Shown here piece by piece: positions 3,210 through 3,691 of a stretch of DNA of 4,525 nucleotides (the stretch's first letter is position 1; each line of letters starts with the position of its first letter). Source of the DNA: a virus (Duplodnaviria; Heunggongvirae; Uroviricota; Caudoviricetes). The notes below the pieces were generated by a model. The model ran no database searches. It saw nothing but the letters and a program-made list of their open reading frames with translations, and was not told where the DNA came from. Both the position numbers and the translations under genes were made by a program. Location of the stretch: IMG/VR virus record IMGVR_UViG_2671180411_000011; one strand, 5' to 3'.

Positions 3210-3239
3210 TTGATTTCATATTGGCGAGGTAAGTAGAAT
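3210..3239 (+). promoter_or_regulatory. Sigma70-type promoter for the hok/mok transcript (TTGATT-18 nt-TAGAAT)
   Basis: -35 TTGATT at 3210..3215 and -10 TAGAAT at 3234..3239. The predicted start near 3246 coincides with the 5' arm of the long-range fold-back pairing. Confidence 0.5.
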
Positions 3240-3299
3240 GACTGCGGGTGCTTGAGGCTATCTGCTTCAGGCATGAACACCAAAAGGCAGATAGAGAAA

Positions 3300-3367
3300 A
3301 GCCCCAGTTAACATTACGCGTCCGGCAAGACGCTTAACATTAATCTGAGGCCAATTTCATGCTTTGC
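3300..3367 (-). ncRNA. sok: Predicted Sok-like antisense RNA opposite the mok start region (position approximate)
   Basis: Expected from hok-family architecture. The only candidate minus-strand promoter I found is weak: TTGCCT (3402..3397), 17-nt spacer, TAACCT (3379..3374). No clear terminator identified. Confidence 0.25.
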
Positions 3368-3571
3368 ACATGTAGGTTAGCCTCTTACATGCCGAAAGGC
3401 AAGGAGAAGCAGGCTATGAAGCAGCAAAAGGCGATGTTAATCGCCCTGATCGTCATCTGTTTAACCGTCATAGTGACGGCACTGGTAACGAGGAAAGACC
3501 TCTGTGAGGTACGAATCCGAACCGGCCAGACGGAGGTCGCTGTCTTCGTAGACTACGAATCCAGGAAGTAA
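3359..3571 (+). CDS. mok: Mok-like reading frame (in frame with and containing hok; translational coupler)
   Basis: ATG at 3359 with GAGG at 3347..3350. The 70-aa product MLCTCRLASYMPKGKEKQAMKQQ... matches the chromosomal MokC-type layout (N-terminal extension in frame with the toxin), as I recall it. Confidence 0.55.
   Translation: MLCTCRLASYMPKGKEKQAMKQQKAMLIALIVICLTVIVTALVTRKDLCEVRIRTGQTEVAVFVDYESRK
3416..3571 (+). CDS. hok: Hok/Gef family type I toxin (small membrane peptide)
   Basis: ATG at 3416 with AAGGAG at 3401..3406 (9-nt spacer). 51 aa MKQQKAMLIALIVICLTVIVTALVTRKDLCEVRIRTGQTEVAVFVDYESRK has the Hok/Gef layout: N-terminal transmembrane helix, TRKxLCE(V/I)R.R.G..EVA.F..YES. Confidence 0.85.
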   Translation: MKQQKAMLIALIVICLTVIVTALVTRKDLCEVRIRTGQTEVAVFVDYESRK

Positions 3572-3647
3572 GAGTGACCGGGCGGGGAGCTGATCCCATC
3601 CCCGCCCACCTCTGATGTGTCAGGCATCCTCAACGCACCCGCACTTA

Positions 3648-3691
3648 ACCCGCCCATCGCTGTGATCTCTCAGCGTTTCGGCGGGTTTTTT
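3648..3691 (+). terminator. Rho-independent terminator of the hok transcript
   Basis: Outer stem AACCCGCC (3648..3655) pairs with GGCGGGTT (3680..3687); inner stem CGCTG (3658..3662) pairs with CAGCG (3671..3675); followed by TTTTTTGTTGTTTATTT. Confidence 0.6.

Follow-up and report, generated by a model that had tools for sequence, protein, structure and literature searches.

We analyzed a stretch of 4,525 nucleotides (nt; hereafter, the window) from the IMG/VR record IMGVR_UViG_2671180411_000011, assigned to Caudoviricetes, and find that positions 3210-3691 very probably constitute an intact hok/mok/sok type I toxin–antitoxin module that lies in the early region of a lambdoid prophage and is orthologous to hokW-sokW, a reading that draws on the sequence, on family and folding models, and on analogy with characterized relatives. 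hok/sok is among the best-understood type I toxin–antitoxin systems, and the system encountered here is already known; judged by its sequence, the locus is a near-identical ortholog of the characterized hokW-sokW locus. All of the predicted parts that define a hok/mok/sok locus are present and intact, namely both promoters, the translational activator element tac, the ucb element, both Shine–Dalgarno (SD) sequences, the dcb element, both open reading frames (ORFs), the 3′ hairpin, the fold-back inhibitory element fbi, and the terminator (Table 1).

Hok and mok Reading Frames

The hok gene encodes a small hydrophobic toxin of the Hok/Gef type, a class of about 50 amino acids (aa), which matches Pfam PF01848 HOK_GEF with E = 4e-23 and 81 bits (cut-off 22); with the NCBIfam Hok subfamily model the same protein scores 55 bits, below the curated cut-off of 73. 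The mok start lies upstream of hok, has an SD sequence of its own, and opens a frame that overlaps hok. Both ORFs and the HOK_GEF match thus bear out the initial annotation of this DNA, which had described a Hok-like toxin with an in-frame Mok-like extension; the in-frame layout is that of annotated mokC/hokC in Escherichia coli K-12 and of mok/hok in phage Rac-SA53. Based on the sequence, the predicted folds, and analogy, mok would act as the ribosome entry point and as the target of Sok.

For comparison across loci, we used 36 distinct full hok transcription units obtained by scanning one genome per species together with an R1-type plasmid and phage records; the units come from Escherichia, Kluyvera, Photorhabdus, Pantoea, Erwinia, Citrobacter, and an R1-type IncFII plasmid. 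The GGAG core of the hok SD is nearly invariant in the alignment of these loci. As a separate observation, the hexamer TACGAA, part of CUACGAA at 3553-3559 and including the Tyr47 codon (3554-3556), is invariant in 36/36 loci; it resembles the anticodon loop of tRNA-Arg(ACG) that is recognized by TadA. A-to-I editing with a Tyr-to-Cys recoding is reported for hokB, and similar editing for hokC, hokD, and hokE (introduction of bioRxiv 10.1101/2025.08.07.668861).

Pairing of the mRNA 5′ End with a Downstream Element

The segment 3243-3257 (TGCGGGTGCTTGAGG) matches the reverse complement of 3628-3643 (TGCGGGTGC-G-TTGAGG) over 9+6 base pairs (bp) with C3634 bulged, which is exactly the fold-back that had been proposed as the fbi/tac pairing. 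In the minimum free energy (MFE) fold of 3243-3691, the closing helix places the 5′ end on 3628-3643; this fold, suggested earlier as a check, reaches -195.8 kcal/mol, compared with -139.5 +/- 6.0 kcal/mol for shuffled sequences (z = -9.5), and 0/100 shuffles were as good. The 15-mer duplex, at -27.3 kcal/mol, was reached by 0/2000 dinucleotide shuffles of the 3′ untranslated region (UTR), and the duplex of the probably transcribed 12-mer (3246-3257), at -21.1 kcal/mol, by 4/2000.

Among the 36 loci, every one contains a tac/fbi duplex, with 9-15 bp and energies of -17 to -31 kcal/mol versus -12 +/- 3 kcal/mol for shuffled partners, and the core GGGUGC/GCACCC is paired throughout. The pair 3249/3637 occurs as U-A in 21 loci, as C-G in 12, and as U-G in 2, which represents a compensatory U-A to C-G swap; GAGG/CCUC is replaced by GAGA/UCUC in Photorhabdus and by GAAG/CUUC in Citrobacter, and the helix is still kept in Photorhabdus, Pantoea, and one Erwinia locus, where the bulged C is absent. 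In the MAFFT alignment the outer 6 bp give an impression of poor conservation, which is due solely to a one-column shift of the loci that lack the bulged C and was resolved by alignment-free duplex analysis. Conservation of the fold-back in homologous loci, on which the proposal had been made to depend, is therefore found in 36/36 loci and is accompanied by compensatory change.

The 5′-3′ complementarity might instead be incidental, reflecting, for example, a generic closing helix or the terminator region, with no regulatory role. Cognate and non-cognate tac/fbi combinations have near-equal energies (-22.5 vs -21.5 kcal/mol), most helix pairs are invariant or vary on one side only, and the outermost 3-4 pairs are probably untranscribed. 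On the other hand, the weak separation of cognate from non-cognate energies arises because tac and fbi are both highly conserved, which makes that test too little informative; moreover, the duplex exceeds the shuffled expectation, it occurs in all of the loci although the 3′ UTR between hairpin and fbi is poorly conserved, the swap in 12 loci is clearly compensatory, and the helix outlasts the loss of the bulged C. A tac/fbi role is, in addition, established for plasmid R1 (PMC9841398). We regard incidental pairing as very improbable and read the complementarity as the regulatory tac/fbi fold-back.

Ends of the Predicted Transcript

The consensus scan gave the predicted hok promoter 9/12 consensus matches. 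Transcription probably starts at 3246-3247, because these positions lie 7-8 nt past the -10 box and because the R1 hok mRNA +1 aligns to position 3247 (R1 numbering checked against PMC9841398: G4, C5, T6; A70, G71, C72); the match to the Rfam model RF01794 also begins at 3246. The complementarity of 3243-3257 is thus real, as first described, but its use as the transcript 5′ end needs to be revised, since T3243-C3245, and perhaps G3246, would probably lie upstream of the RNA. With this start, the outer 3-4 fold-back pairs (3243-3246 with 3640-3643) are probably absent from the RNA and exist at the DNA level only. Pairs 3244/3642 and 3245/3641 are kept in only 13-14/36 relatives.

The GC hairpin noted earlier directly after the stop codon is borne out by folding (-20.9 kcal/mol, z = -4.2), and its stem is kept across loci. 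Its position fits the 3′-processing end of the truncated, translatable mRNA and, by analogy, the hairpin is presumed to form the 3′ end and the exonuclease block of the trimmed, active mRNA; the role of the 3′ hairpin is known from R1 mutants (PMC9841398). Compared with relatives, this hairpin has 5-7 additional nt in its loop (3589-3598), apparently through a short duplication (GATCCC-ATCCCC), and its stem is unaffected. Folding likewise reveals the terminator that had been reported (-24.7 kcal/mol, z = -5.4); a simple terminator scan of 3100-3850 gave no match because the loop limit of the scanner is 8 nt.

Alternative Pairings in the Leader

The 10-bp leader hairpin of the initial annotation was recovered at the same positions, and in the 36 loci 91.7% of its cells are paired, with three pairs changing on both sides. 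A fold of 3246-3275 (-16.9 kcal/mol, z = -4.9) predicts the metastable 5′ hairpin of the nascent transcript; sequestration of tac by such a hairpin during transcription has been described for R1 in the work from which we take the switch model and the element names (PMC9841398). The full-length MFE fold contains the ucb/SD pairing, a fold of 3246-3305 contains tac/ucb, and in the Rfam consensus GAGGC (3347-3351) pairs with dcb. The RF01794 covariance match, which extends over 3246-3421 (+) at 117 bits (gathering score 59), spans tac/ucb, the Sok-target hairpin, and SD/dcb, and this structure match, together with the ucb/SD and tac/ucb folds, points to mutually alternative pairings in the leader. 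Across loci, tac/ucb is paired in 34-36/36 and mok SD/dcb in 35/36. The base at 3249 takes no part in tac/ucb, in agreement with its covariation only with fbi.

Predicted Placement of Sok on the Minus Strand

The initial annotation held that the antisense partner could not be confidently located. By sequence comparison Sok can be located, on the minus strand from about 3367 to 3291, where an alignment with sokC, a predicted promoter of its own, and a fold converge on an RNA antisense to the mok start. The predicted 77-nt RNA folds at -30.2 kcal/mol (z = -5.0) into a long hairpin with a 9-nt single-stranded 5′ tail and a U-rich tail, and four of the hairpin pairs show compensatory changes among the compared loci. 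We placed its promoter by homology and by reading of the sequence, not by consensus scan; the TTGnCn-17-TAnnnT promoter pattern and the shape of the Sok RNA recur in nearly all 36 loci.

Taken literally, the Rfam match would put Sok on the plus strand at 3246-3421, since RF01794 is called "sok" and is the sole Rfam family that matches the window. The 157-nt model, however, starts at the 5′ end of the hok mRNA and extends to the ATG of hok, with AUG as its final bases; because of this span, we read it as a description of the hok leader in the open conformation and not of Sok. In K-12, RF01794 falls on the hokC/mokC strand (L002, 502-654, minus), with the annotated sokC on the opposite strand (553-611). 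An antisense RNA moreover needs the other strand, and it is there that the conserved promoter and the Sok-like fold exist. We give a plus-strand Sok almost no credence and retain the minus-strand placement. The covariance search proposed earlier thus matched the hok leader without locating Sok, and automatic annotation based on RF01794 would put Sok on the wrong strand.

Prophage-type loci carry a GC-rich extension of 16-18 nt at the tip of the Sok/Sok-target hairpin (3316-3333), GCGTC-CGGCAA-GACGC, which is absent from hokC-type, Photorhabdus, Erwinia, and R1-type loci. In L027, from Kluyvera genomosp. 3, the 16-nt core of the tip occurs as its exact reverse complement (GCGTC-TTGCCG-GACGC); L029, from an Enterobacteriaceae isolate, carries at the tip a diverged version in the L027 orientation, ACGTC-TTGCAG-GACGT. 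As judged from these sequences, the hairpin tip is either flipped or inserted in both orientations.

Intactness of the Locus

The locus could also be a decayed, nonfunctional hok remnant like most chromosomal copies in E. coli K-12, with its structures as leftovers. Decay is common: K-12 hokC carries IS186 and lacks fbi and terminator, loci L011 and L039 are without the entire leader, tac is partly deleted in L010, and the reading frame is disrupted in L045. The host prophage itself has an insertion of an element resembling the insertion sequence (IS) IS600 and a frameshift, and hokA, hokB, and hokC are reported to be incapable of post-segregational killing (introduction of bioRxiv 10.1101/2025.08.07.668861). 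Within 3210-3691, however, no element is missing and neither an IS nor a frameshift was found, and every element other than the hok -35, the 3′ hairpin, and the terminator has the same sequence as in the functional locus of Sakai prophage 5 (Sp5). We therefore consider decay improbable and favor an intact module; the earlier impression of a functional-looking, not decayed, locus agrees with the intactness of every element and the near-identity to hokW-sokW.

Several points count against an intact and working module, beginning with the near-equal cognate and non-cognate energies and the failure of chromosomal hokA, hokB, and hokC to kill, both given above. Only 3/6 bases of the Sok -10 box agree with the consensus, and for this reason the promoter was missed by the consensus scanner. 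The tac/ucb and SD/dcb pairings are invariant and so lack support from covariation, and the MFE fold of the trimmed RNA (3246-3612) keeps the 5′ metastable hairpin and ucb/SD and contains no tac/ucb; thermodynamic prediction alone therefore fails to reproduce the open form. The surrounding prophage looks damaged (IS600-like insertion at 4453/4454, frameshift at 311-318), and a role in phage release may have been lost here.

Table 1. Predicted elements of the hok/mok/sok locus, in window coordinates
Feature	Position	Strand	Description
Predicted hok/mok mRNA promoter	3210-3239	+	-35 TTGATT (3210-3215), 18-nt spacer, -10 TAGAAT (3234-3239)
Full-length hok mRNA, ~445 nt	3246-3691	+	Inferred 5′ end 3246-3247; 3′ end at terminator U run
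tac, GGGUGCUUGAGG	3246-3257	+	Predicted to pair with fbi in full-length RNA, with ucb after 3′ trimming
Metastable 5′ hairpin of nascent transcript	3248-3258 with 3264-3274	+	Predicted fold
Leader hairpin	3258-3267 with 3285-3294	+	10 bp including one G.U; enclosed by tac/ucb stem
ucb (anti-SD), AAGCCCC	3299-3305	+	Closed form, pairs with mok SD; open form, with tac (3246-3253)
mok SD, GAGG	3347-3350	+	8 nt upstream of mok ATG; paired with ucb in full-length fold
mok reading frame	3359-3571	+	70 aa; hok frame extended by 19 codons
dcb, GCCUC	3380-3384	+	Pairs with mok SD region in open form (Rfam consensus alignment)
hok SD, AAGGAG	3401-3406	+	Read from sequence, 9 nt upstream of hok ATG
hok toxin gene	3416-3571	+	51 aa, MKQQKAMLIALIVICLTVIVTALVTRKDLCEVRIRTGQTEVAVFVDYESRK
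GC hairpin after stop codon	3580-3607	+	9-bp stem, 3580-3588 with 3599-3607
fbi, CCUCAA-C-GCACCC	3628-3640	+	DNA complementarity extends to 3643
Intrinsic terminator	3647-3691	+	8-bp outer stem 3647-3654 with 3680-3687, inner 5-bp stem, U run ending at 3691
Predicted Sok promoter	3402-3374	-	-35 TTGCCT (3402..3397), 17-nt spacer, -10 TAACCT (3379..3374)
Predicted Sok antisense RNA, ~71-77 nt	3367 (5′) to ~3291 (3′)	-	Maps from annotated K-12 sokC by pairwise alignment

Proposed Mechanism

The steps proposed here are drawn from the sequence, the predicted folds, and homology, and follow the R1 model summarized in PMC9841398. The sigma-70 promoter would yield the stable mRNA of ~445 nt, and during its synthesis the 5′ hairpin (3248-3274) would conceal tac. 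In the finished RNA tac would sit on fbi, thereby leaving ucb free for the mok SD, and this closed, full-length form would allow neither translation nor Sok binding. Slow 3′ exonucleolytic trimming would then strip the terminator and fbi and halt at the GC hairpin, after which tac would move to ucb and the mok start region would open. A short-lived Sok, made from its own minus-strand promoter, would cover 3367..3291; its single-stranded 5′ tail would pair first with the mok start loop, so that mok, and therefore the coupled translation of hok, would be blocked and RNase III would cut the duplex. If Sok synthesis ended, as might happen when the element is lost, transcription is shut off, or the prophage is induced, the pool of trimmed mRNA would be translated and Hok (51 aa, inner membrane) would kill or lyse the cell. 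By analogy, the most likely role of the locus is faster lysis and phage release upon induction, and/or prophage stabilization.

Divergence in the Sok Tail and mok-Start Loop

The only mildly new observation here is a hot-spot of divergence at 3352-3367, the 16 nt from which both the 5′ tail of Sok and its target loop at the mok start are formed. In a small sample (8 close prophage hok loci, 16 columns), substitutions cluster in this segment, where the mean pairwise difference is 0.39; the overall value is 0.116, the Sok hairpin next to the segment reaches 0.025, and tac and the mok SD show no difference (0). The segment is the second most divergent of 381 sliding windows. The loop regions of two other hairpins are similarly variable, which weighs on the interpretation of this hot-spot. 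We tentatively suggest, as a possibility that we hold to be rather doubtful, that the recognition segment diversifies so that co-resident hok/sok copies avoid cross-neutralization; the incompatibility determinants of plasmid antisense RNAs provide an analogue. The extended Sok hairpin, with its apical loop in both orientations, might contribute to such specificity.

Prophage Neighborhood and Distribution

The neighbors of the locus in the window are lambdoid prophage genes, so that the series reads ydaV/DnaC-like ATPase, DUF977, QueH, hok, and DUF1367. Upstream, the window has a run of eight A residues at 311-318 (A8), versus A6 in the near-identical record L001; this difference frameshifts the 260-aa gene that precedes the ydaV-like gene (stop at 341-343), and may reflect either a genuine pseudogene or a sequencing error in the homopolymer. 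A GAA/GAG-rich stretch at 429-448 is rearranged relative to L001, and 263 N at 734-996 mask the end of the frameshifted gene and the start of the ydaV/DnaC-like ATPase gene. At the other end, the last 72 nt (4454-4525), starting TGAGGTGTACTGGCAATAGCGGACAC, are the end of an IS3-family IS600-like element that interrupts the DUF1367 gene, leaving 117 aa versus 199 aa in an otherwise 99.8% identical E. coli record. An assignment of these 72 nt to IS186, considered on the basis of an ambiguous BLAST table, was rejected, as the sequence is that of an IS600-like end.

Just past the hok terminator, a second promoter-like site at 3712-3739 (+) carries the hexamers of the hok promoter (TTGATT, 16 nt, TAGAAT) and is followed on its 3′ side by a conserved ACTTAAGTAGCGCGCAGGGA motif, which is present downstream of hok in L011 as well. 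The 95-aa ORF that comes after this site (3821-4108) has no match in Pfam or NCBIfam.

The 521-nt region is found at 100% identity in two E. coli chromosomes and at >=80% identity in 4713/5426 complete E. coli genomes, the median being 2 copies per genome and the maximum 9; 110 phage records also match, mostly of Stx and lambdoid phages, in which the locus is annotated as hok/mok, gef, or MokW. hok occurs in ~80% of Enterobacteriaceae genomes, with enrichment in prophages (bioRxiv 10.1101/2025.08.07.668861). With hok so widespread, hok/sok well understood, and a near-identical copy experimentally tested, the discovery value of the locus is small. Its value is one of annotation: the identical RefSeq record has a "hokD" coding sequence, the name given there to the window protein, as the sole feature annotated for this locus, without mok, sok, or RNA elements, and the element map of this locus is transferable to thousands of prophage copies.

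Comparison with Known Systems

The closest characterized system is hokW-sokW of Sp5 (Stx2 phage VT2-Sakai) in E. coli O157:H7, whose Hok is identical to that of the window at 50/51 residues, the single difference being R50 in the window versus E50 in HokW. In both loci the Sok hairpin is extended, mok is in frame with hok, and the setting is a lambdoid prophage. No position differs in tac (12/12), ucb, mok SD, dcb, hok SD, fbi (13/13), the -10 of hok, or either hexamer of the Sok promoter, and over 3234-3643 as a whole 373/410 positions are identical. The Sok region is identical to the sokW region at 70/77 positions, and all seven substitutions fall within 3352-3366, in the Sok 5′ tail and mok start loop. 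In contrast, the 3′ hairpins are identical at 14/28 positions, that of the window being 5 nt longer, and the sequences after fbi are unrelated, such that the strong terminator sequence at 3647-3691 is absent from Sp5. The flanking genes also differ, with QueH upstream in the window.

HokW is a toxic protein that localizes to the inner membrane; sokW, which is complementary to the hokW leader over 71 nt, neutralizes it in a manner that needs its own promoter and partly RNase III and Hfq (PMC8621323). sokW vanishes after mitomycin C, in RecA-dependent induction, and deletion of hokW-sokW delays growth arrest and halves phage release (PMC8621323). By analogy with this system, whose toxin is 98% identical, the window locus may be expected to kill through Hok and to be neutralized by Sok through RNase III-dependent decay.

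The window Hok is 80% identical to K-12 HokC (gef) and 90% identical to the Hok of L011, and belongs to the same Hok subfamily. The K-12 mokC/sokC layout matches that of the window and was used for placing Sok; however, in K-12 hokC, IS186 abuts the 3′ hairpin and fbi and terminator are lost, whereas the window locus is complete, and the hokC-type Sok is without the 16-18 nt hairpin extension. L011 sits at the chromosomal position of K-12 hokD (relF), and we take it to be the K-12-type hokD; it lacks leader, tac, mok, and sok and has kept fbi.

The paradigm of the family is hok/sok of plasmid R1 (parB), with which the window locus has in common the 5′ metastable hairpin, tac/fbi, ucb/SD, tac/ucb, SD/dcb, the 3′ protective hairpin, and the terminator, as well as the in-frame mok, an antisense Sok with a TTGnCn-17-TAnnnT promoter, and the RF01794 match. 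The R1-type tac/fbi duplex is shorter (9 bp), and the segment corresponding to 3288-3367 measures ~63 nt in the R1-type locus used versus ~80 nt in the window. HokW is reported to be 44% identical to R1 Hok (PMC8621323), and the two systems differ in setting, R1 hok/sok being a plasmid stabilization system and the window locus being borne by a prophage.

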